DNA of 64,000 nt from Patescibacteria group bacterium UBA5147 (GTDB lineage: Bacteria > Patescibacteriota > Saccharimonadia > UBA4664), in NCBI GenBank assembly GCA_002415345.1, contig DHXV01000002.1, positions 76,155 through 140,154 of the forward strand, read 5' to 3'. Both the position numbers and the translations under genes were made by a program. Each line of letters begins with the position of its first letter. The stretch's first letter is position 1. A model generated the notes under the pieces. That model did not search any database, was not told where the DNA came from, and was given only the letters and a program-made list of their open reading frames with translations. This document shows positions 4,838 to 61,916 of this stretch, in pieces.

Positions 4838-4863
4838 AAGGCCCGCTTCGGCGGGCCCTTTTG
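4838..4863 (+). terminator. Intrinsic terminator after fusA
   Basis: GGCCCGC-ttcg-GCGGGCC followed by CTTTTG. Confidence 0.75.
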
Positions 4864-5446
4864 TTAATAGACTTATGCTTGCAAGCTCTTTGACCAGCTA
4901 TTACACTGATTTCACGTCTAATTGATACGAATTGAGTTAGAAGTTCTTTTTTAAGCCACGCCAATAAAGGCAGCTCAGCGAGGCTGCATTGGCGGTACAC
5001 CCGCGGCTCGTTCTCCGCTCTTGTTCATACCAAGAGCGTACGCGACCGCAACCGGCTCCTAGGGTGGCCGGTATCTCGCGAGGACGTGAATTAGTAGGGG
5101 GTCGGTCCCCCGAGCATTCAGACGTTATGCGAGAGCGGTGGGTGCGGTTCGGACCATAAACAGGCGCACGGCGCAGCTGTAGTGCCCCGTCTGTTGGTTC
5201 GTTCCGCATCCACCTTGAACTTGGCTGCTCGCCAGAGCTGCCGTATGACTGCCGGAACGGCTTGGTACAATTCCCTGAGCCGAGTCGTTCCGGCACAACC
5301 CGTCGGGCGGCGGCGCACACCGAGGTGTCCCCCGCCCTGCTGCAGTTCTTGGAGCTGTAACTCCGAGGATAGTCGCCGTCCGGCCCATACCTTCATTGCC
5401 CTCTGCTGTTACAGCGGAGGGTTTCCTAGTTTAAGACCCCAGCCCT

Positions 5447-7391: not shown

Positions 7392-8177
7392 ATGAAACAC
7401 CTTTCAAAGGTAACACGATTCACATATAGGCATCCGACTACTAGCGTTGTGGCAATCCTTATCGTATTTAGTGCGCTTTTCTTATACCTAGGTTTTCACA
7501 CGGCAGTCCATGCAAATCCAGCTGACCTCTATATCAACTTAGCGGCAGGTGGTATATTTTCCATCTTCGCATTACTATTTATTGAACTTTTTAGGGATAG
7601 ACAGCGCAGCTTTAGCGGCAAGGAGGGGCGTTTTGCCGCTACATCGGATGCTAATAGAATGAGCAGAATGCTTGTTGAGTGGGCAGCGGGAAACTTCGGC
7701 GAGTCAGTGCTCACTTACAAGATCGATCCAAATAATGAAGATATTTCTCGGAATCAAAATGCGATAGTGATGTCACAAAAAATGATGGCTCTATCAATGA
7801 TTAATGCTTTACGAGAATTTAGTCCAGGCAAATGGCAAATTCTACGTGATAACCTTATTGGGCTGAAAGGGCAGGTTAATGAATTCGCCGAGTACTATAA
7901 GGAGATGACCCCATTAGATGTTTATGGCAAATATCTGGAGGTAAGGCGATTGCACATGGGTATGGTTACGAGCTTTGCCCCGAACCCATTTAGCGATCTG
8001 CTCACGAAACCTGAGGATGAATGGGCTCATAACAAGTATGGTGTTGTTTATATGCGTCAACTTCGTGAAAACCAGTTAACTCAAATGGCTGAGATGTACG
8101 AGAAGTACATTTCGTCGCTAGTCAGCTTTCATCTGGCTGTAGTCTGCTGGTTTGACTTGGAGGATGGCCGCAAATAG
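7392..8177 (+). CDS. Hypothetical membrane-anchored protein (AT-rich gene)
   Basis: 261 aa; two N-terminal TM helices; local GC is clearly lower than the flanks; no recognisable domain. Confidence 0.4.
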   Translation: MKHLSKVTRFTYRHPTTSVVAILIVFSALFLYLGFHTAVHANPADLYINLAAGGIFSIFALLFIELFRDRQRSFSGKEGRFAATSDANRMSRMLVEWAAGNFGESVLTYKIDPNNEDISRNQNAIVMSQKMMALSMINALREFSPGKWQILRDNLIGLKGQVNEFAEYYKEMTPLDVYGKYLEVRRLHMGMVTSFAPNPFSDLLTKPEDEWAHNKYGVVYMRQLRENQLTQMAEMYEKYISSLVSFHLAVVCWFDLEDGRK

Positions 8178-8229
8178 CAAATCTAACTTTAGATTTGGTT
8201 CACGGGCATAGTGCCTGTTAATCTTCTGA

Positions 8230-8817
8230 TTAAATAAGAGGTGGCTCTGTGATTGTGTCTGTGATAGTCGCGTGTAAGTGTTGGGCGGAGGCCTGATATT
8301 TGCTTGGAGCGATTACAATGAGACGCTGCGCAAGAGGCAGATACAGCGCCCTGGTTTCTTCGTTTTTACGGATTTGCTTGGCTGGGCTGCATGAACCTAG
8401 CGTTCGCTGGTTATGCAGCCGGTCCGACAGCTTAATGATAAGCGTCTGCCAATCAGCCTTTTCTAATCCTGCGTAATAGTTGACCCCCGACTGCTTGGTA
8501 AGCAGGTCAAGACGGTCGGCGACTTCATCGCCGAAATTCACGCGTACCCGGTGGTCACTTAAGAGGAAGGTGTCTTCGCGCACGTCGTGGAGCAGGGCGG
8601 TAATGATGATTTTCTCATCGTAGACGTGCAACTCATCGATGAGGATCATCGCGACGGCCTTGGGGTGCTCAAAGTACCTCTCACCGCTGGAACGGGTTTG
8701 GCCGCGGTGGGCGTATTTGCTGAAGATGTAGGCTGCTTCGACAGCTTCCAACTCCAGGTGTGACATTGTAGGCGCGAGTCGGGCTAAAAATTCTGGTCGT
8801 CCGATTTTGTGGGTCAT
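8230..8817 (-). CDS. HD-domain (p)ppGpp hydrolase, SpoT/Mesh1-like small alarmone hydrolase
   Basis: Start ATG at 8817 with AAGGAG RBS. HD motif ALLHDVREDT and EHP... typical of the RelA/SpoT hydrolase domain. ~195 aa with no synthetase domain. Confidence 0.65.
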   Translation of the reverse strand: MTHKIGRPEFLARLAPTMSHLELEAVEAAYIFSKYAHRGQTRSSGERYFEHPKAVAMILIDELHVYDEKIIITALLHDVREDTFLLSDHRVRVNFGDEVADRLDLLTKQSGVNYYAGLEKADWQTLIIKLSDRLHNQRTLGSCSPAKQIRKNEETRALYLPLAQRLIVIAPSKYQASAQHLHATITDTITEPPLI

Positions 8818-8950
8818 GATATTCTCCTTGCCTTCGTTTCTCCGGAATCGAAAAAGAATAAAAAAGGCGGCTTGGAACAAGGAACGATTCCTTGTAGTAG
8901 CCGCAATAGACGCCTGATGGCCGCTGTCCTAATACAATGTGATTATAACA

Positions 8951-9358
8951 TTATGTGGCGTTACTAGCAATCGGCGGTGTCGGGTTTTCCTGTAAGAGTT
9001 CGAAATGAATCGCCAAGACCCCGTATTCAGCTTCTTCGGTAGCTGGGTATATGCCGCGATAAATTGTTATTCCGTCTGCAATGGATTTGGTACGCGGTAA
9101 CACTTGTTCCAGCCCGGTTAGCATAAGCATTCTTTCGAATGTCGGGAATGAGTCAACGAAAGTGATTTTCAATAGCGCACGGTTGGGAATTTCGCGAACC
9201 GTACCGTCTGGCAGCGTGACGTCCTCGCGTAAGTATATTAGATCACCTGGTTGGTACTGGCTGAACTTACCGCGATTGAGCCGACCTTCGACGGTCTTGG
9301 CTCCGGCTAGGATGTCGTTGATATATTCGGTCGAACGGCCAGCTTCAAAGATTTGCAT
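8951..9358 (-). CDS. ASCH-domain protein
   Basis: 135 aa; MQIFEAG...KTVEGRLNRGKF...GDLIYL resembles ASCH/PUA-like beta-barrel proteins. Confidence 0.55.
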   Translation of the reverse strand: MQIFEAGRSTEYINDILAGAKTVEGRLNRGKFSQYQPGDLIYLREDVTLPDGTVREIPNRALLKITFVDSFPTFERMLMLTGLEQVLPRTKSIADGITIYRGIYPATEEAEYGVLAIHFELLQENPTPPIASNAT

Positions 9359-9390
9359 TAGATTAGTATAACAAATATACGCAATGAAAG

Positions 9391-9418
9391 GGCCCTGTCG
9401 CTGTTAAGCGACAGGGCC
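9391..9418 (-). terminator. Perfect 11-bp hairpin (GGCCCTGTCGC/GCGACAGGGCC); likely terminator of the 9431..9646 gene
   Basis: Hairpin lies 12 nt downstream of the minus-strand stop, followed on the minus strand by CCTTTCATT. Confidence 0.5.
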
Positions 9419-9430
9419 GGGGTGGATGGG

Positions 9431-23628: not shown

Positions 23629-24126
23629 ATGGCTATTGAACAACAGCCCAAAGAGTTCGAAGAGAAGGTCATAGCCATCGACCGCGTTGCCCGTGTGGTA
23701 AAGGGCGGTCGCCGTTTCCGTTTCCGTGCCACCGTGGTTATCGGTGACGGTAAGGGCCGGGTCGGCGTCGGTGTCGGCAAGGGTGGCGAGGTTATGACCT
23801 CGATCGCCAAGGCCGTCTCACGAGCCAAGGCTCAGATGATTACCGTCCCGCTGCGCGACCACACTATCCCGCACGAAATCGAAGTCCGCTTCGCCGGTGC
23901 CCAGGTTCTGCTTAAGCCGGCTTCAGCCGGTACCGGCGTCATCGCCGGAGGTGCCGTGCGTAACGTCGTCGAGGCGGCCGGTATTCGTGACCTCTTGAGC
24001 AAGTCGCTCGGATCCAGTAATAAAGTAAACAACGCTTACGCCACAATCGCAGCCCTGTCCCAACTTAGGGCCGTGCCTGAGAAGAAGGCCAAGCCTGAAG
24101 CCAAACCTGAAAAAGTAACGGCGTAG
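23629..24126 (+). CDS. rpsE: 30S ribosomal protein S5
   Basis: 165 aa; VVKGGRRFRFRATVVIGDGKG is typical S5. Confidence 0.95.
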   Translation: MAIEQQPKEFEEKVIAIDRVARVVKGGRRFRFRATVVIGDGKGRVGVGVGKGGEVMTSIAKAVSRAKAQMITVPLRDHTIPHEIEVRFAGAQVLLKPASAGTGVIAGGAVRNVVEAAGIRDLLSKSLGSSNKVNNAYATIAALSQLRAVPEKKAKPEAKPEKVTA

Positions 24127-24136
24127 GAAAATAGTC

Positions 24137-24637
24137 ATGAAAATTCACGAATTACAACTTTCCGCCAGCAAAGACCGTAAGCGCGTCGGTCGCGGTATCG
24201 GCTCCGGTTACGGCAAGACGGCCGGCCGCGGTACCAAAGGTCAGAACTCCCGAACCGGTGGGGGCGTCCGCGTCGGTTTCGCCGGCGGACAGAACCCGCT
24301 CTCCAAACTGTTGCCAAAAAAGCGCGGTTTCCGCTCGCTCAACCCAACCCACTACCAGGTAGTCGCGGTTTCGTTGCTGAACGGCTTCAAGGACGGCGAC
24401 ACGGTCAATGCCAAGCACATGGCCGAAGTAGGCCTGGTTAAGAAGCACGATGCTCTCATAAAGCTGCTGGCCGGCGGCGAGGTCGAGCGCAAGCTCACCG
24501 TCCACGTCAACGCTGCCAGTGCCACGGCTATCGCAGCCATCGAGAAGGCCGGCGGCAGCGTCGTCATCACGCCGCTTCCGAAGACTCCTAAAAAAGCCAC
24601 CCGCCCTCAAATCACTGAGGCACCGAGCGCCGAATGA
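24137..24637 (+). CDS. rplO: 50S ribosomal protein L15
   Basis: 166 aa; KRVGRGIGSGYGKTAGRGTKGQ is typical L15. It follows rpsE after a 10-nt gap, leaving no room for rpmD (L30). Confidence 0.95.
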   Translation: MKIHELQLSASKDRKRVGRGIGSGYGKTAGRGTKGQNSRTGGGVRVGFAGGQNPLSKLLPKKRGFRSLNPTHYQVVAVSLLNGFKDGDTVNAKHMAEVGLVKKHDALIKLLAGGEVERKLTVHVNAASATAIAAIEKAGGSVVITPLPKTPKKATRPQITEAPSAE

Positions 24638-46424: not shown

Positions 46425-47084
46425 ATGAAGTTACCTCAACCCAAACCAGATCAAGAAACATCAGCGACTGCTAGTTTGCGAGTTGCCACAGCCATAACGG
46501 TCGGGGTTGTCGGCGGGCTGATGGTCGGTTTTTTTGGAGCCTGGAAATATGCGCCTCTGGCCGTTTGGGACTTGGCCGCAATTACTTTTCTGGTTTGGAT
46601 ATGGGCCGCGTTGTACGGGCGCGACGCCCAACAAACGGCCAATCTGGCGGTACGGGAAGATCCGGGCCGCGGGGCCACCGATTTGCTGCTGGTGCTGGCC
46701 AGCGTGGCTAGTTTAGCAGCCGTCGGCGTTCTGCTGGCTCAGACTAAAAATTCGTCCGGAATAACCGAGATTCTTCAAATCGGGCTGGGAATCGCCAGCG
46801 TGGTAGCGTCGTGGGCCGTGGTCCATACGGTCTTCGCGCTGCGTTACGCCAGGATATATTACAGCAAGCATGGCGGTATAGACTTCAACAGTGACCAGCC
46901 GCCTCAATATTCCGATTTCGCCTACCTGGCGTTTACCATTGGCATGACTTTTCAAGTGTCTGACACGGCCTTCAGCACCCCGGAACTGCGGCATATTGCG
47001 CTACGCCAAGCGTTACTGTCATACCTGTTCGGCACGGTAATCGTGGCAACCACCATCAATTTGATTGCCGGACTTGGCAAATGA
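46425..47084 (+). CDS. Integral membrane protein (4-5 TM, hypothetical)
   Basis: 219 aa; multiple hydrophobic helices; no catalytic motif seen. Confidence 0.4.
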   Translation: MKLPQPKPDQETSATASLRVATAITVGVVGGLMVGFFGAWKYAPLAVWDLAAITFLVWIWAALYGRDAQQTANLAVREDPGRGATDLLLVLASVASLAAVGVLLAQTKNSSGITEILQIGLGIASVVASWAVVHTVFALRYARIYYSKHGGIDFNSDQPPQYSDFAYLAFTIGMTFQVSDTAFSTPELRHIALRQALLSYLFGTVIVATTINLIAGLGK

Positions 47085-47353
47085 TCAACAAAGTCTTTAT
47101 CGCCGGATTAGATTTTGGCATCGACGACGCCGCCCTGCTGGATTTATTCTCGGCCTGCGGTGAAGTGCTGAGCGCTCGCGTTGCCTTGGACCGGGAGACC
47201 GGCCAATCACGCGGCTTTGGCTTCGTGGAAATGGCCAGCGACGAGGAGGCCGAGGAAGCCATTCGCGCTTTGGACGGCAAGAATCTGGCCGGTCGTACTC
47301 TCGTAGTGAACTTAGCTAAGTCTACTGGTGGCGGCCGGGGCGGCCGGTCTTAG
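47081..47353 (+). CDS. RRM-domain RNA-binding protein with Gly/Arg-rich tail
   Basis: 90 aa; RNP-2 KVFIAGL and RNP-1 RGFGFVEM; C-terminal GGGRGGRS; the ATGA overlaps the upstream stop. Confidence 0.75.
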   Translation: MINKVFIAGLDFGIDDAALLDLFSACGEVLSARVALDRETGQSRGFGFVEMASDEEAEEAIRALDGKNLAGRTLVVNLAKSTGGGRGGRS

Positions 47354-47595: not shown

Positions 47596-49065
47596 ATGTC
47601 AAGTACACGGATCCAAATTGCGCCAGCTTCGCGTGATGCCACCCGTGGCAATATGCGCGTTCCGGCTGGTCTGTTTCATGCCTTCGCTCATCTTCTCCAT
47701 AAATGGCGGCCCGTAGTCTTTATCATTCTTTTTCTCGGAATTGTCGTGGCACCGTTCTACGTTGTCACGCAAGCCTTAGAGAGTGGTGACGGCTGTTCCG
47801 CGGTCAGCGCAACGCCAAAACGTGACGCTGAGGCAACCGTTTCAAAACCTGGCCCTCTTCCGAGTGTCGGATTCGAAAGCTATCCCGGTAATCCTAACCA
47901 GGTATTGGCAAAGTCTCGCTGCGTCTTCGACTCCAACCTGGAGCGCGTGGGCGTGGCTCAGTCAACCGCGCTGTCCAGTTCGGAGAGTGCCATCAATGAC
48001 TTTGCAGCCAGCAAGATGGGAAGCCTATCGGTTTTTTCGTTCCTGCTTTTCATCTTCGCAGCTGTTTCCTGTCTCTATTACTGGGTCAACCGGAAAGGTT
48101 CGCCTGATCGGAAGAAGGCGAGTAGTGATGATCTGTCCATGCGCGGCCGGCTCTTTGTCGGACCTGTCGCCTGGTTGATTATGGGGCTTTCGTTGCTCTA
48201 TTCGCAGAATGCCCTTGTCCTGCTGAACGCTCCGAGCCACGGCATAGTAGCCCTTAGCAGTGTGGGTTCCCTGTCGAACGACAACCTGTCCAACTACACC
48301 TACCGCACAGCAGAGCTGAACCCTTTTGGTAGCGTGATGTACGGCTACGACCGTCAGTCCGAGTTCAAAGCCTCCGCCCCACATATCGATGCCTACCTCA
48401 GTGGGAGGCCGGTGAGTCAGGTGGAGTATAAGAATTATGCCGCGCTCTATAACCAGCGGGTCATAGCCGACGATAAGGTCGGATCCATGCAGAACACCGC
48501 CAAAGCGGTCGAACGCTTTGGAACCAGCCTGAACACCACTTCAGGAATCTTGGCTCAGGCCGTGAATATCCTGCGGTCGGCTTTTTTGGCGATTTTTGTA
48601 GGCAGCTTCTTTATCTTGGTTGCCCTGTGCGCGGTCCGACCCGTGAGAGCCAGGCGTTACTTCAAGCGCTGGTTCTTTGCCAACGCGGCACCGTTTGGCC
48701 TGCTAATTCTCAGTCTCATTGTCCTGTTGGGCGTCAACTGGGGAGGCATCTACGCGGTATCCTTTGCTACAGCCCCCGAAATGTGGGGAGTGGTGTGGGG
48801 TTGGACGTTAGCCGCCTACATAGTTCAAGTGATCGGGTATCTCGTGCCTTGGTTGCTGGTCTATTCGGTTTACCGGTACTACCGGCACACCTCCGGATGG
48901 ATGCTTCAGTCGATGGCCACATCCGACGACAGGTGGGTAATGGAAGTAGGCAACCGGCTCGTTGCGGCGCGCGAACAGCGTGCCATCACGGGCAGACTGC
49001 TTCTCAAAATCCCATATTTCCGCCGTAGGCAACTTACCGCCGCTCGGGTTGGTGGCACACCATGA
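47596..49065 (+). CDS. Polytopic membrane protein (hypothetical) preceding the tandem hydrolase genes
   Basis: 489 aa; at least 7 hydrophobic helices; it ends ...GGTP with TGA overlapping the next ATG, the same junction as the next gene. Confidence 0.45.
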   Translation: MSSTRIQIAPASRDATRGNMRVPAGLFHAFAHLLHKWRPVVFIILFLGIVVAPFYVVTQALESGDGCSAVSATPKRDAEATVSKPGPLPSVGFESYPGNPNQVLAKSRCVFDSNLERVGVAQSTALSSSESAINDFAASKMGSLSVFSFLLFIFAAVSCLYYWVNRKGSPDRKKASSDDLSMRGRLFVGPVAWLIMGLSLLYSQNALVLLNAPSHGIVALSSVGSLSNDNLSNYTYRTAELNPFGSVMYGYDRQSEFKASAPHIDAYLSGRPVSQVEYKNYAALYNQRVIADDKVGSMQNTAKAVERFGTSLNTTSGILAQAVNILRSAFLAIFVGSFFILVALCAVRPVRARRYFKRWFFANAAPFGLLILSLIVLLGVNWGGIYAVSFATAPEMWGVVWGWTLAAYIVQVIGYLVPWLLVYSVYRYYRHTSGWMLQSMATSDDRWVMEVGNRLVAAREQRAITGRLLLKIPYFRRRQLTAARVGGTP

Positions 49066-49291
49066 CCACGACGACTGCCGCACCTCAAGATACGGTGCGG
49101 CAGTCGGGCCAGAGTGGAACCGGAAGCAAAGGTAATCTTTTCGTTGCCGCTGCTTTGCTACTGGCTCTGGCCTTTCTCACGGGGCTGAACCCTGCTAATG
49201 CCCGTGCTGCAACATGGGACGCGGTTCAGTCCATCGCCAAACTCGACGGCAGCGGTCTATCCAAGACCATTGTCAAGGCGGGGGACAAGGC
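49051..49291 (+). repeat. Direct repeat copy 1 (241 bp) spanning gene junction plus N-terminal module
   Basis: Identical to 49806..50046 except one substitution (A 49113 vs G 49868). Confidence 0.85.
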
Positions 49292-49820
49292 TAAGAGCCA
49301 GGCAGAGAGCAAAGGGCTCGTGAACCCCGTTACCAAGGCCGGATACCGGTATGTGGCGATGGATAGTTCATGGGTTGGTAGCTTACCTAACGGGTGCGCG
49401 AACAAAGCTCATCCCTACATCGGCATGATGAATAATTCAGCCAAACAGGCTGACGTCGATGTCCGGCTCGTTGGGTCACTAACTTGCCACGAGTCCGGTT
49501 TTTCTCCAACCGTCTGTTCAGGCGCTGGGGCCTGCGGACTCGATCAGTTAATGCCTGCAACAGCCCGAGGGCTCGGAGTAACAAACCGGAGCGACCCCCA
49601 ACAGTCCCTGAATGGTGGCGCACGCTACCTGAGGGGTCAGTTGGATCGATTCGGCAAATTATCCTTGGCTTTGGCTGCGTATAATGCCGGATCCAATGCA
49701 GTTCTCGGTTATGAGAAAGGTGTAAAGGTCCGCGGTGTCGGTGTTCCGCCCTACGGTGAGACGATCAGTTACGTCGCAAGGATCCAAAACACCTACCGGG
49801 CAACCGGTGGCACACCATGA
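49062..49820 (+). CDS. Membrane-anchored lytic transglycosylase (SLT domain)
   Basis: 252 aa; signal-anchor LFVAAALLLALAFLTGL; SLT motifs CHESGF (catalytic Glu), GLDQLMPATA, AYNAGSNAV. Confidence 0.65.
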   Translation: MTTTTAAPQDTVRQSGQSGTGSKGNLFVAAALLLALAFLTGLNPANARAATWDAVQSIAKLDGSGLSKTIVKAGDKAKSQAESKGLVNPVTKAGYRYVAMDSSWVGSLPNGCANKAHPYIGMMNNSAKQADVDVRLVGSLTCHESGFSPTVCSGAGACGLDQLMPATARGLGVTNRSDPQQSLNGGARYLRGQLDRFGKLSLALAAYNAGSNAVLGYEKGVKVRGVGVPPYGETISYVARIQNTYRATGGTP

Positions 49821-50046
49821 CCACGACGACTGCCGCACCTCAAGATACGGTGCGGCAGTCGGGCCAGGGTGGAACCGGAAGCAAAGGTAATCTTTTCGTT
49901 GCCGCTGCTTTGCTACTGGCTCTGGCCTTTCTCACGGGGCTGAACCCTGCTAATGCCCGTGCTGCAACATGGGACGCGGTTCAGTCCATCGCCAAACTCG
50001 ACGGCAGCGGTCTATCCAAGACCATTGTCAAGGCGGGGGACAAGGC
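49806..50046 (+). repeat. Direct repeat copy 2 (241 bp)
   Basis: See copy 1; both start with GGTGGCACACCATGACCACGACG. Confidence 0.85.
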
Positions 50047-50590
50047 CCAGCAGAAGGCGCAGTCCCAAGGTTTGGTTAACCCGTCAGACAATTCTGTTTC
50101 ACGCCGCGGACAAGCGTTAGTTGCCAGTGGGAGCGTAACAACCATCTCGATTGGCAAATGCAGGCCGCTACTCGATCTCAAGTCGGGTAAAATGTTCCCC
50201 CAGGCTATTACGTATCTGGAGAAACTGGCAAAAGCGGGTTTCACAGTTGAGATTAGTTGCATCTTTACCGGGCACACCTGGAACGTAGCGGGTACCAACC
50301 GAACCTCACTCCACTTCAAGGGGCAGGCGTTCGATATCACCCGCGTCAACGGTCAGCCGATCTGCGATGTCATGGTCGGTTCAGTCGACAGTCATCACGA
50401 CACACGTCACTGTTCAAAGCCGTCCGCTGCTAGCAAGAAACTCACTCACTGGCTCTTCGCCCAAGCTAACAGCCAACTTCCCTTTGAGGTTGGTGGGCCG
50501 TTTAGTACAGGGAGTCGTGACAAATCCAACGGTGGTCGGTTTTTCACCAACACCGGTCATCAGACCCATTTCCATTTCGGCTTCAAGTAG
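49817..50590 (+). CDS. Membrane-anchored peptidase M15-like peptidoglycan hydrolase
   Basis: 257 aa; first ~76 aa are nearly identical to the previous gene; C-terminal SLHFKGQAFDI (SxHxxGxAxD) and HQTHFHF (HxH) fit zinc D,D-peptidase M15. Confidence 0.55.
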   Translation: MTTTTAAPQDTVRQSGQGGTGSKGNLFVAAALLLALAFLTGLNPANARAATWDAVQSIAKLDGSGLSKTIVKAGDKAQQKAQSQGLVNPSDNSVSRRGQALVASGSVTTISIGKCRPLLDLKSGKMFPQAITYLEKLAKAGFTVEISCIFTGHTWNVAGTNRTSLHFKGQAFDITRVNGQPICDVMVGSVDSHHDTRHCSKPSAASKKLTHWLFAQANSQLPFEVGGPFSTGSRDKSNGGRFFTNTGHQTHFHFGFK

Positions 50591-50651: not shown

Positions 50652-50686
50652 TGGGCCCGCTCGATTTCGATCGAGCGGGCCCCTTT
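50652..50686 (+). terminator. Intrinsic terminator after the hydrolase pair
   Basis: GGGCCCGCTCGAT-ttcg-ATCGAGCGGGCCC followed by CTTTTCATTT. Confidence 0.8.
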
Positions 50687-50808: not shown

Positions 50809-50837
50809 TTGACAGTAGCTGACAACATGCCTAGAAT
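50809..50837 (+). promoter_or_regulatory. Strong sigma70-like promoter (TTGACA-17-TAGAAT) for the T4SS-like cluster
   Basis: Consensus -35 with a near-consensus -10, embedded in a very AT-rich upstream tract; ~175 nt leader to the ATG at 51014. Confidence 0.5.
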
Positions 50838-51013: not shown

Positions 51014-53173
51014 ATGACAATGCTAGCGGGTGACTCAGCGGATGAGGCAAATCGACCTCGACCACGTACGCTTCAAGGAAGAATCAACCAGGCCATCGGA
51101 CTGACAAAAGTCTTCTCCCTCGAGGAGATGACCGAATTTCACTCCGAAGCCATCCTGTTTGCGCTGCAACAGCGCGAAGAGGCGGCCAGGAACGAGCTCG
51201 GTAGTGCGACCTTTAACGGGCCGGCTGTCGTTGCGACTTTTTCGCCCAAGGGCGGGCCGGGTAAAACGACCATTGGTGCTGGCGAAGCCATCACCTGGAG
51301 TACAGCTCGGCGCCGCGACCGCGCGGTCGTCATCGGAGCCGACTCCAACGCCGGCACACTCAGCGTCAAGATGGGGCAGACAAAGGGTTGGTCACTCCAG
51401 ATGCTTGCCGATAAGCACGACGACATCGACTCCTATGAGAAACTCATCTGGGCCTTCGGGTTCCAGGGCGAGGGTGTCATGGTGGTCGCATCCGACCCGA
51501 GCGCCGAACGCGACAATGAGAACGCCACCGACTTCAAGAAGGTGGTTAATCATCTCTCCACCTATCTCAACGTTTTCAAGATCGACTGTGGAATTGATTT
51601 CAATAATCCGCTCACGCAGTCGGTGCTTGAAGCCACGGATATCCTCGTTCTTGTGACCGATCCCACCCGGGACTGTCTCACGACGATCGACGAACTCGTT
51701 CGCAAGCAGGGTAACGCCCCCATGTTTGGTCCGCTCATGGCAAATGGCATCCTCGTGATCAACAAGGTCAAGGATGACACACCATACCTTGACCGCATCA
51801 TCGCTCGCTACGAGCGGTTCTTCTCTCGGATCCTCATCGTCAACTACGACCGCCAGCTCGACACCGGCGGCGAAATCGTCATGGAGGACCTGGATTACGA
51901 GACCCGCGTCCAGTTCACCGAGCTGTCGGCGGCAATCGCCGGTTGTCTCTCGCGCGTTCGGCCACAGCGGCCGGAGGACCAGCTTGAGGTACCGGAGATT
52001 GACTCGAACCTTGCATGGCTTACCGCTCCGGAGACGCAGCCCTATGGCCTCGCTCCGCTCGACGGTGAGGATTTTGACTGGAGTCAGAAAAAGACTCCGG
52101 TGACCGTTCACGCACAGGTCACGTCAGCACAGCTCCACAACCCCGTCTTGGTTGGTGACCCTGGTCACCACTCAATGCGTTTCGGCGGAGTTGTGAGGAT
52201 CACCAAGGCAGCAACCATTGCCGCCATCGGTGCGGCCGGGCTTGGGGGAATATTCCCAACGGTCGCCATTGCCGACTCTGGCAGCGGACAGCCACTCTCA
52301 TCGGTTTCGGACGGTGCATCGAATGACGGAGCCTCGACAAGTGTCGAGACGCCGCCGTCTGTGGCCCCCGAGGCTCCAGCAGCTCCTGCGGGTGATACCG
52401 CTGTCAAGGTGCAAAGCGGCGCTGGTGTCACGGCAGATGTCGGTGCTTCGACGAGCGATGTTCCTACAGCGCAGGTTGAAGTACCACCAACGGCCTCTCC
52501 CGTGATTACGGATCCACAGCCTGCAGCAATAGGCGAGAGCCAACGGCATGGCAATCAGGCAACCACGGGCAAGCACAGAAGGCCCATTCCAACAGTTCAA
52601 CCTGAAGCACAGGTTTCAACTAGCCCGCCCCAACAGGTGCAGGCTGAAAGCCCTCGACCAGTAGTTGCCGATCAGGCAGCACCTCAAGTGGTTACTTCAC
52701 ATCCATCAGCCGCCTCACATCCGTCAACGACGGTTACGGGCACAACAGCCGATGGAGTCTCTCCGAAGTCACCGGTGTACCAAGCACCTGTTCAGGCGCA
52801 ACGTATCCATAACGAGGCTCAAGCCGCACCTCGCGTCTACTCGTCAACCGGCAAGCCGCAGGCATCCGCCAATGTGGCCGTTAGTTCCACCGAGAAATCG
52901 GCGACCGGCATATCGCAGTCCAACGAGCCAGCCAGCTCCGCGGCACCCGAATCACCGATGGTCGGCACTGTCTTCGTTACCAACGGGGACTCTCTTTGGA
53001 AAATTGCCGAAGATGCGCTTACGGTGCATCTGAGCAGGCAGCCTACGAATCATGAGATCGACCTCTACTGGCACCAGATTTATCAGGTGCCGGCAAACCA
53101 TGAGGTTATTGGCGGAAACGACGATTTGATCCTTCCCGGACAACGTCTGGAGCTGCCGGCTTTCCATTCCTGA
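51014..53173 (+). CDS. ParA/MinD-like P-loop ATPase - TM helix - Pro/Ser/Thr-rich linker - C-terminal LysM domain protein
   Basis: 719 aa; deviant Walker A FSPKGGPGKTT; one TM (ITKAATIAAIGAAGLGGIFPTVAIA) around residue 400; ~250-aa low-complexity linker; C-terminal LysM (GDSLWKIAE...IYQVPANHEVIGGNDDLILPGQRLELP). Confidence 0.55.
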   Translation: MTMLAGDSADEANRPRPRTLQGRINQAIGLTKVFSLEEMTEFHSEAILFALQQREEAARNELGSATFNGPAVVATFSPKGGPGKTTIGAGEAITWSTARRRDRAVVIGADSNAGTLSVKMGQTKGWSLQMLADKHDDIDSYEKLIWAFGFQGEGVMVVASDPSAERDNENATDFKKVVNHLSTYLNVFKIDCGIDFNNPLTQSVLEATDILVLVTDPTRDCLTTIDELVRKQGNAPMFGPLMANGILVINKVKDDTPYLDRIIARYERFFSRILIVNYDRQLDTGGEIVMEDLDYETRVQFTELSAAIAGCLSRVRPQRPEDQLEVPEIDSNLAWLTAPETQPYGLAPLDGEDFDWSQKKTPVTVHAQVTSAQLHNPVLVGDPGHHSMRFGGVVRITKAATIAAIGAAGLGGIFPTVAIADSGSGQPLSSVSDGASNDGASTSVETPPSVAPEAPAAPAGDTAVKVQSGAGVTADVGASTSDVPTAQVEVPPTASPVITDPQPAAIGESQRHGNQATTGKHRRPIPTVQPEAQVSTSPPQQVQAESPRPVVADQAAPQVVTSHPSAASHPSTTVTGTTADGVSPKSPVYQAPVQAQRIHNEAQAAPRVYSSTGKPQASANVAVSSTEKSATGISQSNEPASSAAPESPMVGTVFVTNGDSLWKIAEDALTVHLSRQPTNHEIDLYWHQIYQVPANHEVIGGNDDLILPGQRLELPAFHS

Positions 53174-54398: not shown

Positions 54399-54857
54399 AT
54401 GGGTTACAACGACCCGTCGCTCCCACCGGCGACAACGGAATATGGTTACGGAGTGAACTACAAGGACATTTTTGCTGAGTATCGTCACATCCCTTGGCTC
54501 AATGGGGGATATACCACTTTTCAACTCATGGTCTTTGGTGCTATTCCGGTGTTTCTTGCCGGCGGCCTGACACTTATTGGTTATGTCGTGAGCTTGAAGT
54601 CTGTTTATGCGGGTGGCACGTTCTACGTCATCGCACCGGCCAGCTTCATACTTGGCATGTACCTCAGCGCGCAGCTGGCAATAAGTGTAGGTAAGACCGA
54701 ACGGCATGGAAATACACAAGCACAATACTTGTGGGACAAACTGAAGTACCACTTTGCCTCGCGACACATCGTCAACGGGCATCCGCATTACGACAGCCTG
54801 CATCGCAGGCAGTCAGTTCTTTCCACTCATTCCTCCAAGGAGGCGGCACCACGATGA
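54399..54857 (+). CDS. VirB3-like small membrane protein (2 TM)
   Basis: 152 aa; two TM helices; AAGGAGG RBS; overlaps the start of the VirB4-like ATPase gene, as VirB3/PrgI-like genes do. Confidence 0.35.
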   Translation: MGYNDPSLPPATTEYGYGVNYKDIFAEYRHIPWLNGGYTTFQLMVFGAIPVFLAGGLTLIGYVVSLKSVYAGGTFYVIAPASFILGMYLSAQLAISVGKTERHGNTQAQYLWDKLKYHFASRHIVNGHPHYDSLHRRQSVLSTHSSKEAAPR

Positions 54858-57409
54858 AGTTTTCAAGTCCATTCGGACGAACGAAGTTGTCAGGCAAGCC
54901 GCCCCTCGGGGTACTTGCCGTCGATCGAATCGCCAGCCTAGTGACGCTATTCGGAACCTCATCGCCCATTCGGGATATCGACGGGTGTTTCCTGAAAAGC
55001 GCCAAGGGGCAATGGGAGGCCTGGTTCCGGATCGATCTGATCCGGGCCTATGACCTACTCTCAAGCGGCGAAAAGATGGGCGCATTTGAACGTCACCTCA
55101 AGCTAGTCGAAGAACTGGTCGGAAAAGTAGTTCACCTCGAAATTCTCGGCGTTCCTGTCGGGTATGAAGAGCGTTACCGCCGTTTCCGGCTTCACGAGCT
55201 CGACGATAAGAACCCGCTTCGAGGTGATCCAGAATGGGAGAAGTCTCGCCATGACCGGGTTCATGACATGGCGACCTGGCTACAGGAGAACGGCGACTTC
55301 GAGTCCCGAGCCTACCTTGGCATTTCTGTTTCGCCGTCGCCAGTCAATCGTCTATCGGCAGAGGCTTTCGCGCAGCTGCCGTTGGACGAACGATTCGGAG
55401 TAAGTTACTACCAGAACAGCCACCTCATCCCCGAGGCAGCACGTCTGCAGTTGTTAATGAAGGCCGCTTGGGGTGGCAAAGTCGACCCCTTGGACCGCGA
55501 CGAACTGGATGTCCTGCTGTCTCTTACTAACTGGCCGGGGCAACCGCAGATATTTGCGCCTGATCATACGGTCGGAGCTATCGGTGGGAGAGACACAGAA
55601 ATCAGCCACTATGGCAGCAGTAACTACAAAGTGGCGGCGCCGGGGGTACTTGAGTTTGAATATCTCGGCACCCCGTCCTTCGCCAGCTTCGTTCCATTGG
55701 TAATTGCAACTGCCCGGGAGTTTTTGCCAGAGACCGAAGAGGAGTTCGCCTTCTGTACCGACGGTGCGGGCAGGCGGCTTCGAATCAGTTGGCGATTCAA
55801 AGTGTGGAAGGGTCTGGATCTTCTCAATTTTGCCCGTAAAACTGCTCGACGGAACGCTAACCATCAGGTATACCTCGGTGAAAACGAGGGACAAATGGTG
55901 GATCTCGATACGGCTGTGGCATCAGCTCAGTCATTCTACAAGCACCTGCTCGATGACGGCATCGCCATCGTCGGCCCGTGCGTGTTGGTGGTAACCGGAG
56001 ATAGCGTCAAATCGGTACAGCAGGAAGTCCGAAATCAGGCCAACAGCCTGAAGAGGAAGGCTCACCTGGTAATCGATGCCGAAGAGTATCAGCAGGCGCT
56101 TTACGAGCACTGCCGTCCAGGTTCAGCCAGGTATCTCAACCGTTTCGTGCAGTATCTCATCCCAGAGGCCTTTGCTCGAGGTATGGCGTTCGTAACGTCA
56201 GCGCCACGGACGATGGGGCCCGATTTACTGGGATGGGTACGTGGGCGAGAGGGCGTCCCTTATACAGGGGGATACGACTTGGCAACTCTCCTTCCCGGCA
56301 CCAACGTATCGCCCACGAATTTGTGGTGCGGTCCTTCGGGAGGCGGGAAAACCACTTCAATCACCGATCAGTTGATTGCGCTCGTCGAGCGGGCAGGGTA
56401 TGTCGGCTTCATTTTCGAGCTTCTCAAAGACGACACCCGTCGTCTACTCGGACGCACGCCCTTAGGCATCACCGTCAGGGCATTTACTCTCGAGAATCAC
56501 CCTGGCCTGCTCAATCCGGCCGGATTCGCTACGATTCCTTCCGAGCGCGTGGATTGCATGAGCGACTTTTTGAAAGCCTGCATCGGCACCATTCGCTGGC
56601 GGGATGAATTTGAAGATCCTTTACGGAGCGCCTGTAAAACGGCAATTCGTGAGGCCGATGAAGCGGGCAACATGAGACCCGATCTCTACCGTGTAGTTGA
56701 GCTCCTCGACGGAGTTAAACTCATCGGATCGCTACTGGAGAAGGTAGCCGGCGACCAAAAAGTTGCTCCGGTTTTCTTTTCCAATCACTACGACCAATCG
56801 CTGATTGATACAATGACCCAGCCGGGTCTGAATATCATCGGCCAGGAGCATTTCAGTATCCCCGATCGTGACAACTTCGCTGATTACACACCGCAGAACT
56901 GGCTGGCACTGGCCGGACTCGACATCGTATCCATGCTTGCACGCAAGGTCGCACATGACCGAGATATTCGCGTGGCGATGGCAACGGTCGAGTTCTGGCG
57001 CACTGCCAGGCTCTCCCGGGGCGCAACCGAAGCGGCCTACATGGGGCGTGTCGGAAGAAGCCTGAATTGTGCTTCCGGCTACGACACTCAATTCCCAGAC
57101 GATGTTGATGAAACCCTGACCAAGCAGGTAACGACTAAGCTGGCATTCTCCGTCATAGGGGCGGAGGAGGTAGAGAAGTCGCTCCATCTGGTTAGTCAGG
57201 AGATTACTCCCAAGTCCATCAGAATGTTTGAGACGATGGCAATGGATACCGAAGACGGAACGGATATCAACAAGGGGACGCACATCGTGCAACTCCCAAC
57301 TCTGGAGACACTCCGTGTCCAGAGCCTGCGCTGGTATTTGCCTGCGGGCAGGACCACCGCATCAGATCTGCCGGAACAAACTCCGGCACCAATCCCCAAG
57401 GAGGGATGA
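54854..57409 (+). CDS. VirB4/TrbE/CagE-family type IV secretion ATPase-like protein
   Basis: Start ATG 54854 with AAGGAGG RBS (ORF-track start 54731 overlaps the previous gene); ~851 aa; Walker A GPSGGGKTT around residue 495; size and context fit VirB4. Confidence 0.5.
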   Translation: MKFSSPFGRTKLSGKPPLGVLAVDRIASLVTLFGTSSPIRDIDGCFLKSAKGQWEAWFRIDLIRAYDLLSSGEKMGAFERHLKLVEELVGKVVHLEILGVPVGYEERYRRFRLHELDDKNPLRGDPEWEKSRHDRVHDMATWLQENGDFESRAYLGISVSPSPVNRLSAEAFAQLPLDERFGVSYYQNSHLIPEAARLQLLMKAAWGGKVDPLDRDELDVLLSLTNWPGQPQIFAPDHTVGAIGGRDTEISHYGSSNYKVAAPGVLEFEYLGTPSFASFVPLVIATAREFLPETEEEFAFCTDGAGRRLRISWRFKVWKGLDLLNFARKTARRNANHQVYLGENEGQMVDLDTAVASAQSFYKHLLDDGIAIVGPCVLVVTGDSVKSVQQEVRNQANSLKRKAHLVIDAEEYQQALYEHCRPGSARYLNRFVQYLIPEAFARGMAFVTSAPRTMGPDLLGWVRGREGVPYTGGYDLATLLPGTNVSPTNLWCGPSGGGKTTSITDQLIALVERAGYVGFIFELLKDDTRRLLGRTPLGITVRAFTLENHPGLLNPAGFATIPSERVDCMSDFLKACIGTIRWRDEFEDPLRSACKTAIREADEAGNMRPDLYRVVELLDGVKLIGSLLEKVAGDQKVAPVFFSNHYDQSLIDTMTQPGLNIIGQEHFSIPDRDNFADYTPQNWLALAGLDIVSMLARKVAHDRDIRVAMATVEFWRTARLSRGATEAAYMGRVGRSLNCASGYDTQFPDDVDETLTKQVTTKLAFSVIGAEEVEKSLHLVSQEITPKSIRMFETMAMDTEDGTDINKGTHIVQLPTLETLRVQSLRWYLPAGRTTASDLPEQTPAPIPKEG

Positions 57410-60052: not shown

Positions 60053-60670
60053 ATGACTCATGTCAGACGGCTCCTTATTGGAGCCTGCCTCGTTGCGATA
60101 GTGGCATTTGCTGCCTGGAGAGGAAATCAATTCCAGACAGCACAAGTTACTCCTCGGCAGTCGACGGCATCCAAGGCAAATACGCAAATGCTTCCCCCGG
60201 ATGCAATGTCTCCAGTGCCACTTCCAACGGCGACAAGCGAGGACTATCAACCGGTTGACTGCTCGCGCGTCATCTCCTCAAGTCAGTTGGGGGATATCTA
60301 TTCGGCCGCCAAACTTTACGCAGGCTTCCCATCGGCGAAGCCCGCGAAGCAGGATGCACTTTCGCTAGCCCGATACGTTCTCCCAGGTCCGTTTCTCAAG
60401 AACACTCAAAGCTCATGGTCGAACTCTGGTGCGCCCATTCGCCGTTCAACCGGCGTTAAGGTAATTGAGTGTTCCGCCGGAGACCAATCCAGTCTGATCC
60501 AGCTCCTGTCCGTCATCCTGAGCGTAAACTCCGTCGATACAAGCGGATATGCGAGGATGGATACGGTTTCCTACGACATGTCAGTCGTGCGTACGGCGGG
60601 CCGATATTTAGTTGTCTCCATCGTGCCTAAGGGCATGTATGGAGGTGGCGCAAATGCGGCCCCCAACTAA
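60053..60670 (+). CDS. Membrane-anchored extracytoplasmic protein (hypothetical T4SS accessory)
   Basis: Start ATG 60053 with AGGAG RBS; N-terminal TM LLIGACLVAIVAFAAW; ~180-aa soluble domain. Confidence 0.4.
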   Translation: MTHVRRLLIGACLVAIVAFAAWRGNQFQTAQVTPRQSTASKANTQMLPPDAMSPVPLPTATSEDYQPVDCSRVISSSQLGDIYSAAKLYAGFPSAKPAKQDALSLARYVLPGPFLKNTQSSWSNSGAPIRRSTGVKVIECSAGDQSSLIQLLSVILSVNSVDTSGYARMDTVSYDMSVVRTAGRYLVVSIVPKGMYGGGANAAPN

Positions 60671-61916
60671 TGCTCGGACGAACAACAAACGTCGTTTCGT
60701 CCGTAACACCGTCATTGCCTCCGTTCAAGCAGCTGCGGGTAATCCCGCTCCGCTTCTTAAACTGCTTCGACCGGTAATCGTAATTGGGTTGGCGGTAACG
60801 CTAGGCCTTTCAGCGGCTATCGGTGCGGCATTCGGGGTTGGGATGTCGCTCGCACACGCAGGGAGTGCGGCTAGCGCGAATAGTCAAAGCGGCGCTGCGA
60901 ACTGTCAAACAAAGACTGTTCGAACCGGCGCCCTCCCAACCAGCCTTCCGGTGGTATACCGCCAGATCTTTGTGAAGGCAGCAGCCTCTAAAGGCGCCGA
61001 CGTCAACCTGCTCGCGACCATATTCTGGGTCGAGAACGGTCAACGTTATCCCGATCCTCCATCACCGTATGGTTTGGGGCTTGGGTGGCCCGTATCCGGG
61101 CCAGGTGCCATGGGGCCATTCCAATTCATGCCGGGAACCTGGACAGGTTACGGCGTCGATGGGAATAGTGACGGTGTCGCTGATCCCAATGACCTGACGG
61201 ATGCCGCGTATTCTTCAGCCGCCTATCTTGTGAGTCTTGGCGGCAAGGCCGGGACACCTTTGGGGGATCCAGCAAATCCTCATGCTGCCAGCACGCTTGT
61301 AAAGGTAATGGCATCTTACAATGCCGGCCCGGCCGGCAACTTTGGCAACCCGGAGACTCAACGCTACATTCAACTTGGCGCGGCGCATTACCTGGATCTT
61401 ACCAGTGATCCGCTAGCTAACCCTGGAGCCACTTCGGTGGTGCAAATCTGCACGAATCAGGCACCGTCTGCAGCGCCTGCCCTATCAGTATCTTTACCAA
61501 CGGGCAAATGCGTTGCAGGTATAGACAAGGGTACGGCTGCTACATTTAATGCCAACACCATAACTCTGTGTGAAGTACGCGGAATATTGGTGAACGCATC
61601 GATTGCAAAGCAGATTGACTCTATGGTGGCCGCAGCCGCTAAAGACGGCATCACGCTTGCTGGTAGTGGGTTCCGCAGCTACAGGGAACAGGTAAGATTA
61701 CGAATCCAACATCACTGCGGTGATGTCTACACCGCGTCTTCAAACACCTGCTCGCCACCGACGGCAGTTCCAGGAACGTCGATGCACGAGCAAGGACTGG
61801 CGGTGGACTACAAGCTGTCTGCCGGTGTCTTCAATTGGCTTCAGCAGCACGCTGGCATCTACGGTTTCAAGAATCTGCCATCAGAAACGTGGCATTGGTC
61901 AGTCAACGGGGGCTAG
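60654..61916 (+). CDS. Bifunctional peptidoglycan hydrolase: SLT lytic transglycosylase + VanY/M15B D,D-carboxypeptidase domains (VirB1-like role)
   Basis: Start ATG 60654 with GGAGG RBS, overlapping the upstream stop; N-terminal TM; SLT motifs VENGQ...GPFQFMPGTW...AAYSSAAYL; C-terminal SGFRSYREQ, SMHEQGLAVDY, ETWHW fit VanY/M15B. Confidence 0.65.
   Translation: MRPPTNARTNNKRRFVRNTVIASVQAAAGNPAPLLKLLRPVIVIGLAVTLGLSAAIGAAFGVGMSLAHAGSAASANSQSGAANCQTKTVRTGALPTSLPVVYRQIFVKAAASKGADVNLLATIFWVENGQRYPDPPSPYGLGLGWPVSGPGAMGPFQFMPGTWTGYGVDGNSDGVADPNDLTDAAYSSAAYLVSLGGKAGTPLGDPANPHAASTLVKVMASYNAGPAGNFGNPETQRYIQLGAAHYLDLTSDPLANPGATSVVQICTNQAPSAAPALSVSLPTGKCVAGIDKGTAATFNANTITLCEVRGILVNASIAKQIDSMVAAAAKDGITLAGSGFRSYREQVRLRIQHHCGDVYTASSNTCSPPTAVPGTSMHEQGLAVDYKLSAGVFNWLQQHAGIYGFKNLPSETWHWSVNGG

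Follow-up and report, generated by a model that had tools for sequence, protein, structure and literature searches.

A shared leader, apparently homogenised by recent gene conversion, on two predicted cell-wall hydrolases of a type IV secretion-like locus in a Saccharimonadia-like bacterium

The DNA analysed here, called the window throughout, is a stretch of 64,000 nucleotides from contig DHXV01000002.1 (positions 76,155 to 140,154) of the Patescibacteria group bacterium UBA5147. Two neighbouring genes of the window, for a predicted lytic transglycosylase and a predicted zinc peptidase of the LAS superfamily, start with nearly identical 241-nucleotide repeats and encode the same N-terminal leader in front of unrelated catalytic domains. 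We read this as an ancient shared leader that was recently homogenised by gene conversion and that holds a stem-loop at each gene start, within a hydrolase operon linked to a type IV secretion system (T4SS). Our rough probability for this combined reading is 0.8. An earlier note on the same DNA had described the repeats and had proposed recent duplication, gene conversion or cassette-like domain shuffling as their origin; the stem-loop was absent from its description.

The two copies of the repeat (Table 1) lie 755 bp apart and differ only at one site, which is A at position 49113 and G at position 49868. A comparison of the region with itself returned these 241 nt with their single mismatch, at exactly the coordinates of the earlier note, and a looser similarity that continues for about 36 nt to 49327 and 50082 (277 nt at 94%). 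A repeat of this length cannot be due to chance. No third copy was found within the window, neither at the DNA nor at the protein level. Each copy opens with GGTGGCACACC, which is the last 11 nt of the preceding gene and comprises the GGTGG ribosome-binding site and a spacer. Both upstream genes end in ...GGTP before the stop codon, and the ATG of the following gene overlaps this stop as ATGA (49062-49065 and 49817-49820). Residues 1-76 of both hydrolases are identical save for S18/G18, so the junction and the common N-terminus of about 76 residues had also been described correctly.

Eight independent contigs of the same organism (L001-L008), found by exact-protein look-ups, cover the locus and allow the layout to be checked at the contig level. 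Copy 1 is crossed together with both unique flanks by L001, L002 and L003, and copy 2 by L004 to L008. The spanning contigs come from different samples and pipelines, and each of them has the copy-specific base; the source samples include JGI 3300011997, 3300012005 and 3300014820 and ENA ERZ27248660 and ERZ27248657. Since the repeat is found on both sides of the SLT catalytic segment, the only possible linear order is membrane protein gene, repeat, SLT, repeat, LAS. As every copy is bridged from one unique flank to the other in independent assemblies, the tandem layout is genuine. We consider it extremely improbable that the assembly of the metagenomic contigs created the repeat or its near-identity through collapse, filled gaps or chimeric joins. 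Such an artefact would explain why contigs break inside the repeats (L002 ends at 49860 and L003 at 49967, L005 starts at 49215 and L006 at 49269), why the scaffold L001 has 243 N within copy 2 and why a deletion junction in L004 falls at the start of L005, but it is opposed by the several assemblies that cross each copy with flanks and diagnostic base and by independently assembled related genomes with the same layout.

The deletion in L004, a 266-kb JGI contig, deserves its own description. At positions 9395-9410 of this contig, 101 nt of copy 1 are missing (window positions 49119-49219), which breaks the reading frame; the deletion junction, at a TGG microhomology, falls on the base with which contig L005 begins. 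We consider the deletion a probable assembly artefact. Contig breaks, the N-gap and the L004 deletion are typical of short-read assembly at an exact repeat of 178 nt. In practice, the 241-bp repeats break or corrupt short-read assemblies of the locus.

Relatives of the locus were sought in two collections. The scan of a genome collection (185,579 species genomes) gave two loci, of which one, from a Candidatus Saccharimonadia metagenome-assembled genome (MAG; L015), has the same gene order, and the scan of a metagenome collection gave one locus. As these scans returned so few loci, the conversion analysis rests on contigs found by exact protein look-up. Diverged relatives with the gene pair are L009, L010, L012, L014, the Saccharimonadia MAG L015 and, as far as it is covered, L019. 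The transglycosylase and the LAS peptidase are P0009 (SLT) and P0002 in L009, and P0008 (SLT) and P0004 in L010. In L019 only the 3' end of the SLT gene is covered, directly before the LAS gene of P0003. L012 and L014 combine a different type of transglycosylase with the LAS proteins P0007 and P0006, respectively, and L015 has an SLT protein together with the LAS protein P0013.

Wherever both gene starts are seen (L009, L010, L012, L014 and L015), the paired N-termini are homologous. In L012 and in L015, the two leaders of the genome agree at 38% of the first 80 residues, which is more than the identity of about 21-31% between leaders of the same type across deep lineages. The sharing of the leader between the two enzymes is ancient, because the same gene pair with homologous N-termini recurs in diverged relatives and in the Saccharimonadia MAG. 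In a search of 5.8 billion proteins the leader was found only on these two enzyme types, and neither this search nor the window contained a third catalytic domain on the leader. We rejected a third leader copy or a third cassette on these grounds.

The leader itself consists of a long N-region, a hydrophobic core, an A-R-A/A site that resembles a site for signal peptidase (in this clade) and a conserved segment of 27 residues, ATWDAVQSIAKLDGSGLSKTIVKAGDKA. Read by eye, the hydrophobic core is followed by a conserved P-A-x-A-R-A/A-T-W. What had been described as a signal-anchor may thus be a cleavable signal peptide, which is a putative assignment from the sequence.

These comparisons bear on the proposal of a recent tandem duplication or of domain shuffling, in which one of the two genes would have arisen recently from a duplicated leader joined to another catalytic domain. 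The 99.6% identity of the copies and the sharp ends of the repeat would fit such an event, as would contig L018, in which the membrane protein gene is directly followed by a LAS gene with no transglycosylase gene between them. The proposal is nevertheless unlikely and already largely refuted. Genomes whose surrounding genes are 15-32% diverged have the same architecture and junction, with a ...TGGTP-type tail and a stop/start overlap, and the architecture is also found in the distant Saccharimonadia MAG; the linker after the repeat is homologous but diverged, by gene type; L009 has an independent and partly decayed tract; and L018 has a different junction and no adjacent T4SS genes. Cassette-style shuffling is not supported either, since the leader occurs on only two enzyme types.

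The reading as gene conversion of an ancient leader is based on how identity is distributed within and between genomes. Compared at the DNA level from the ATG to +230, the paired leaders of the window are 99.6% identical and those of L010 82.6%, with 93.6% for the pair of L009 (97.4% in the first 150 nt, then 86%), and leaders from different genomes are 75-84% identical in every comparison. In their catalytic parts and their upstream gene, these genomes are 15-32% apart. Outside 49051-49291 the sequences group by gene type and not by genome, and identity drops sharply at 49050/49805 and at 49292/50047. The linker just past the repeat is homologous between both genes, diverged, and follows the gene type. 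Because the identity within a genome exceeds the identity between genomes and the flanks follow the gene type, the near-identity is best read as recent gene conversion of at least 241 bp, from 11 nt before the start codon to codon 76. Of the origins that the earlier note had offered, this is the one that the comparison bears out. The conversions in the window lineage and in the sister lineage L009 are independent and differ in tract length, the tract of L009 being shorter and older, and in L012 and L014 there has been no conversion since their split. If the two copies of the window had diverged like the L010 pair, simple arithmetic gives P of about 1e-17 for one mismatch or fewer in 230 nt.

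Selection alone, with RNA structure and protein constraint keeping the leaders identical without any recombination, is a very unlikely substitute for gene conversion. It can draw on the near invariance of the hairpin in eight gene starts and on the good conservation of the mature N-terminal segment at the protein level. Outside the hairpin, however, orthologous leaders differ at about 45% of the columns and at about 70% of the third codon positions, and the two copies of the window are identical there, synonymous sites included. Constraint cannot explain identity that is confined to one genome.

The donor of the gene conversion was probably the LAS (peptidase) copy and the recipient the transglycosylase copy, because the junction GGCACACC is the form that follows SLT genes and because the leader of the window is slightly closer to LAS-type than to SLT-type orthologues. 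This junction form is found after the SLT gene in L009 and nearly so in L019, and the tails of the membrane protein genes in L009 and L010 differ from it. G at 49868 is common to the orthologues, so A at 49113 would be a later mutation. We also considered that L010 might be a chimeric contig, which it probably is not; the leader of its SLT gene shares only 80% identity with that of L011, whose N-terminus is similar.

The repeats are plausible as a recombination hotspot, as the earlier note had suggested. A more specific idea is programmed variation, with the repeats serving as sites for swapping or deleting catalytic cassettes: recombination between repeats 755 bp apart could remove the catalytic part of the SLT gene, and each repeat contains a perfect 13-bp palindrome. 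We regard this as highly improbable, as no recombinase was recognised in the annotation between 43 and 64 kb, neither the protein search nor the window yielded the leader on a third catalytic domain, and no contig of the same organism has a swapped or SLT-deleted form. Repeat-to-repeat deletion variants and copy-number variation were likewise not found among the contigs.

Each repeat has a conserved stem-loop of about 75 nt at the gene start. Its apical stem is a perfect 13-bp inverted repeat, CGACUGCCGCACC / GGUGCGGCAGUCG, starting 10 nt after the ATG. In the lower helix, codons 16-21 pair with CCGG/UUGG, which overlaps the beginning of the GGTGG ribosome-binding site, and with CAC, CC and the UG of the start codon. 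A segment of 110 nt has a minimum free energy of -51.9 kcal/mol (z = -4.9), and 0 of 200 shuffles were as stable. Eight gene starts from five lineages hardly vary in the hairpin, and 34 of its 36 columns are invariant in a set of seven sequences. Of the third codon positions, 10 of 12 are invariant within the hairpin and 15 of 52 in the remaining leader (Fisher p = 0.0008). Across the eight gene starts 97.6% of the cells pair, versus 27-43% with slid partners. In L019 one apical pair is changed from A-U to G-C and another to a U-G wobble, and in the SLT gene of L010 and the LAS gene of L011 a pair of the lower helix is changed from C-G to G-C. With these two compensatory pairs and the changes compatible with G-U pairing, the covariation score of the eight closely related sequences was above 500 of 500 shuffles. 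No Rfam family was found, the only match being a chance one to a microRNA precursor (E 0.96). The palindrome is probably not a repeated operator, as its half-site occurs without mismatch only in the two hairpins.

Together with the ATGA overlaps, the stem-loop suggests translational coupling, because it pairs bases beside the ribosome-binding site and the start codon at places where the start codon also overlaps the upstream stop. A separate observation concerns the LAS gene of L015 (positions 4845-4900), where positions +22 to +30 pair with the ribosome-binding site of this gene (GCGGAGCU) in a different stem of 8 bp. Start regions may thus be occluded repeatedly, also where the 13-bp hairpin is lacking.

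Several points weigh against our combined reading. The assembly L004 shows the 101-nt deletion within copy 1, and within the repeats the exact sequence of the window is that of consensus contigs. Complete close gene pairs come from only three genomes, and one of these, L010, is without recent conversion. The direction of the conversion is based on a junction of about 11 nt and on an identity difference of 2-3%. The covariation is thin, with two compensatory pairs, and relatedness alone can beat shuffles. Finally, the hairpin is absent at the same position in the more distant L012, L014, L015 and L018.

Table 1. Features of the hydrolase operon and the adjoining T4SS-like locus, in positions of the window
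Feature	Position	Strand	Description and basis
Polytopic membrane protein gene	47596-49065	+	489 aa, ends in ...VGGTP; from the list of open reading frames
Stem-loop 1	49049-49123	+	apical 13-bp stem 49072-49084 / 49094-49106, 9-nt loop
Repeat copy 1	49051-49291	+	11 nt of the upstream gene end, ATG, codons 1-76 of the SLT gene; 240/241 identical to copy 2
Family-1 lytic transglycosylase gene (predicted)	49062-49820	+	252 aa: leader 1-76, linker, SLT domain about 123-220 (PF01464)
Stem-loop 2	49804-49878	+	same structure at the LAS gene start; apical stem 49827-49839 / 49849-49861
Repeat copy 2	49806-50046	+	11 nt of the SLT gene end, ATG, codons 1-76 of the LAS gene; 240/241 identical to copy 1
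LAS-fold zinc peptidase gene (predicted)	49817-50590	+	257 aa: leader 1-76, linker, catalytic domain about 88-257; S-L-H166-x6-D173, H251-x-H253
Intrinsic-terminator-like hairpin	50653-50682	+	13 pairs (10 G-C), then CTTTTCATTT; closes the three-gene operon
VirB4-like ATPase gene, T4SS-like cluster	54731-57409	+	PF12846 AAA_10, E 1.6e-9
Fused SLT_2 (MltB-type) and VanY (M15B) hydrolase gene	60612-61916	+	different N-terminus; domain profiles

The two hydrolase genes form an operon with the upstream gene for a polytopic membrane protein, and this operon of three genes heads the T4SS-like locus. The membrane protein has about five or six hydrophobic segments and no family match in Pfam or NCBIfam; a homologue precedes the hydrolase genes in L009, L010, L012, L013, L015 and L018. 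No promoter-like site was found upstream of either hydrolase gene. A near-consensus promoter for the next operon (TTGACA, 17 nt, TAGAAT) is located at 50809-50837 after an A+T-rich spacer, and the strong terminator and this promoter separate the hydrolase operon from the T4SS operon.

Contig L018 (positions 1-1435) has a homologue of the 489-aa membrane protein followed directly by the LAS peptidase P0012 with a related leader, and the genes downstream of P0012 read as a HAD-like hydrolase and CTP synthase instead of T4SS genes. Judging from this contig, the functional core may consist of the membrane protein together with the LAS peptidase. Upstream of the operon of the window, at 46425-47353, a gene for a DUF1345 membrane protein is followed by one for a 90-aa RNA-binding protein with an RRM_1 domain, and these two genes show a further ATGA stop/start overlap at 47081-47084.

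The first hydrolase is predicted to be a family-1 lytic transglycosylase. Its SLT domain (Pfam: PF01464) covers residues 123-220 with an E-value of 2.6e-21 and 75.8 bits versus a cut-off of 21.3 bits, and it matches the catalytic domains of MltF, MltC and Slt70 in the PDB. Family-1 transglycosylases are characterised by a catalytic Glu in an E-S motif, a GLMQ-like motif and an AYNAG motif; the translation reads CHESGF, GLDQLMP and AAYNAG at these places. Enzymes of this kind cut between MurNAc and GlcNAc and leave a 1,6-anhydro product. The assignment of this gene in the earlier note is confirmed, as is a fusion of the two activities within the T4SS-like cluster, where domain profiles identify a protein with SLT_2 and VanY domains.

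For the second hydrolase, no Pfam or NCBIfam family scored above threshold. The best Pfam match is Peptidase_M15_3 (E 0.055, 14.1 bits versus a cut-off of 23.2 bits), and of 46 family members only 3 gave marginal matches to M15_4. No PDB chain was matched, even at an E-value of 10, by profiles built from 8 and from 46 sequences. A profile search of 1.8 billion representative proteins returned 237 relatives at E-values up to 0.001. In alignments of 46 and of 93 relatives the residues D120, H153, H166, D173, H251 and H253 are invariant and form the motifs S-x-H-x6-D and H-x-H; the zinc-ligand motifs of the LAS superfamily, H-x(3-6)-D and H-x-H, are thus present. The structural model of the catalytic domain, built from the alignment of 93 sequences (pLDDT 96.5, pTM 0.91), has the LAS fold, with MepA (M74) as the best structural match at 13-14% identity. 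On the basis of this model and of the motifs we classify the protein as a divergent predicted zinc peptidase of the LAS superfamily (MEROPS clan MD), closest in fold to MepA. The M15-type peptidase of the earlier note stands at the level of the superfamily, by fold and motifs, and does not stand as a member of the Pfam M15 families, to which the match is only below threshold. Comparison with hhalign gave no link between the LAS family and the VanY domain of the fused protein, which rules out that the peptidase is a recent paralogue of this VanY domain.

A homologue of the LAS domain was found on the Thermoanaerobacterium plasmid pMU3262 (L020, NC_017998.1, positions 7765-9426), in a protein of 553 aa that is annotated as lytic transglycosylase. 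The LAS domain corresponds to the C-terminal half of this protein (32% identity, E 1e-11), and the gene is located three genes downstream of one for a DUF87-domain protein, which we take to be a VirB4-type ATPase. This fusion near a DUF87-domain protein is in support of a link between the LAS family and T4SSs. The LAS domain is also fused to transglycosylase-like domains in P0014 and P0015. In addition, there are stand-alone LAS homologues on Rhodococcus plasmids, annotated as hypothetical or as 'extensin family'.

The window comes from an uncultivated, Saccharimonadia-like member of the Patescibacteria, and the DNA is chromosomal, as it carries genes for EF-G, EF-Tu, a ribosomal-protein operon, SecY, RpoA and tRNAs. 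The gene for ribosomal protein S5 is followed after 10 nt by that for L15 with no L30 gene between them (23629-24637). We take this order to be a hallmark of the candidate phyla radiation, and it fits such an origin of the window.

Downstream of the hydrolase pair the order is a MinD/ParA-like protein, a weakly PrgI-like protein, a VirB4-like ATPase, a polytopic membrane protein and the fused SLT_2 and VanY hydrolase. The VirB4-like protein also matches an NCBIfam model for TcpF-like proteins (E 4e-10), with 38 bits far under the cut-off of 1100 bits. Gene callers placed its start at 54854 (in L001), and the gene overlaps the PrgI-like gene. The hydrolase pair lies about 4.3 kb upstream of the VirB4-like gene, and the same gene order from the pair to VirB4 is found in L001, L004, L006, L009, L011 and L015. 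The hydrolase pair is encoded within a T4SS gene cluster. The T4SSs of Patescibacteria are related to the conjugation machinery of monoderm bacteria (PMC12102498), and the gene cluster of the window fits the monoderm-type T4SS described for this group. In Saccharibacteria a T4SS-like machine is essential for the epibiotic growth of Southlakia (PMC10633639).

The first gene of the operon after the hydrolase pair encodes the MinD/ParA-like protein (51014-53173). This protein of 719 aa has an N-terminal P-loop (weak NCBIfam hits), one hydrophobic segment, a long region rich in Pro, Ala and Ser and a C-terminal stretch that looks LysM-like by eye.

Taken as a mechanism, our reading would start from old homologous leaders on both hydrolases, one of which was overwritten by the other in a recent conversion, with the substitution at 49113 arising later. 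With a common leader, the two enzymes would be exported by one route and held by one tether or docking surface. Cutting of glycan strands and of peptides would thereby be brought to one site of the wall, and two proteins would fill the role of a fused VirB1-type hydrolase; the fusions of the LAS domain on pMU3262 and in P0014 and P0015 are in favour of this. At each junction, the ribosome that finishes the upstream gene would open the stem-loop, and the hydrolase would most likely be translated only then. Through such coupling, two enzymes that might lyse the cell itself would be made in step with the membrane protein.

A more ambitious version, which is doubtful, sees the shared module as a dedicated two-layer device of Saccharimonadia-type epibionts. 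The stem-loop would gate the translation of both hydrolases, and ATWDAVQSIAKLDGSGLSKTIVKAGDKA would act as a docking or export signal that hands both enzymes to the upstream membrane protein or to the T4SS-like machine, in order to breach the wall of the host bacterium and not only the cell's own. Recurrent conversion, possibly seeded by the palindrome, would ensure that both signals continue to fit a partner that evolves fast.

The closest known counterparts are the bifunctional VirB1-type hydrolases of Gram-positive conjugative T4SSs, such as TraG of pIP501, PrgK of pCF10 and the TcpG/CD419 types (PMC12102498). Like these, the pair combines SLT-type glycan cleavage with peptide cleavage in a VirB4-containing cluster, and the enzymes are membrane-tethered or exported, here by prediction. 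Unlike in the VirB1-type fusions, the two activities are divided between two proteins that have a leader in common; the peptide-cutting partner is a LAS zinc enzyme and not of the CHAP, NlpC/P60 or LytM type; the pair is in an operon of its own with a membrane protein, upstream of the VirB4 operon; and the locus has an additional fused SLT_2 and VanY hydrolase. The relatives of the peptidase in the LAS superfamily are MepA (MEROPS M74), the M15 enzymes VanX and VanY, phage L-Ala-D-Glu peptidases and the Hedgehog N-domain. It differs from MepA and M15 by the lack of a significant PDB sequence match, by its M15 score below threshold and by its low identity to MepA.

Tandem paralogues can evolve in concert by partial gene conversion, as is known for the tuf genes and for the leader regions of lipoprotein families. 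The copies of the window resemble such cases in being closer to each other within the genome than orthologues are between genomes, in the sharp tract and in the independent events in separate lineages. Here, in contrast to the usual cases, the tract covers only the initiation region and the export leader of enzymes with unrelated catalytic domains, and the last four codons of the upstream gene are overwritten with it. Translational coupling, in which an mRNA structure that occludes a start is opened by the terminating ribosome of the upstream gene, is likewise an established mechanism. The ATGA overlap, the stable helix that includes the start codon and the flanks of the ribosome-binding site, and the lack of internal promoter-like sites agree with it, whereas the duplication of the element at two successive junctions, its position mostly in coding sequence and the missing Rfam match set it apart from known coupling.

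The locus therefore combines known processes, namely partial gene conversion, wall hydrolases associated with a T4SS and translational coupling. New are the unclassified family of LAS peptidases, the split arrangement of two enzymes with a homogenised leader and a start-site stem-loop that had not been described. According to a survey, VirB1 homologues are seldom associated with virB4 in Patescibacteria (PMC12102498). The locus of the window is a candidate wall-opening set for a T4SS-like machine, with a membrane protein, a lytic transglycosylase and an unclassified LAS peptidase in one operon. It makes testable whether the N-terminal segment is a targeting signal and whether the stem-loop enforces coupled translation. 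It likewise makes testable whether the LAS family, with about 240 representative clusters and no Pfam match above threshold, may be a general T4SS-linked peptidase.

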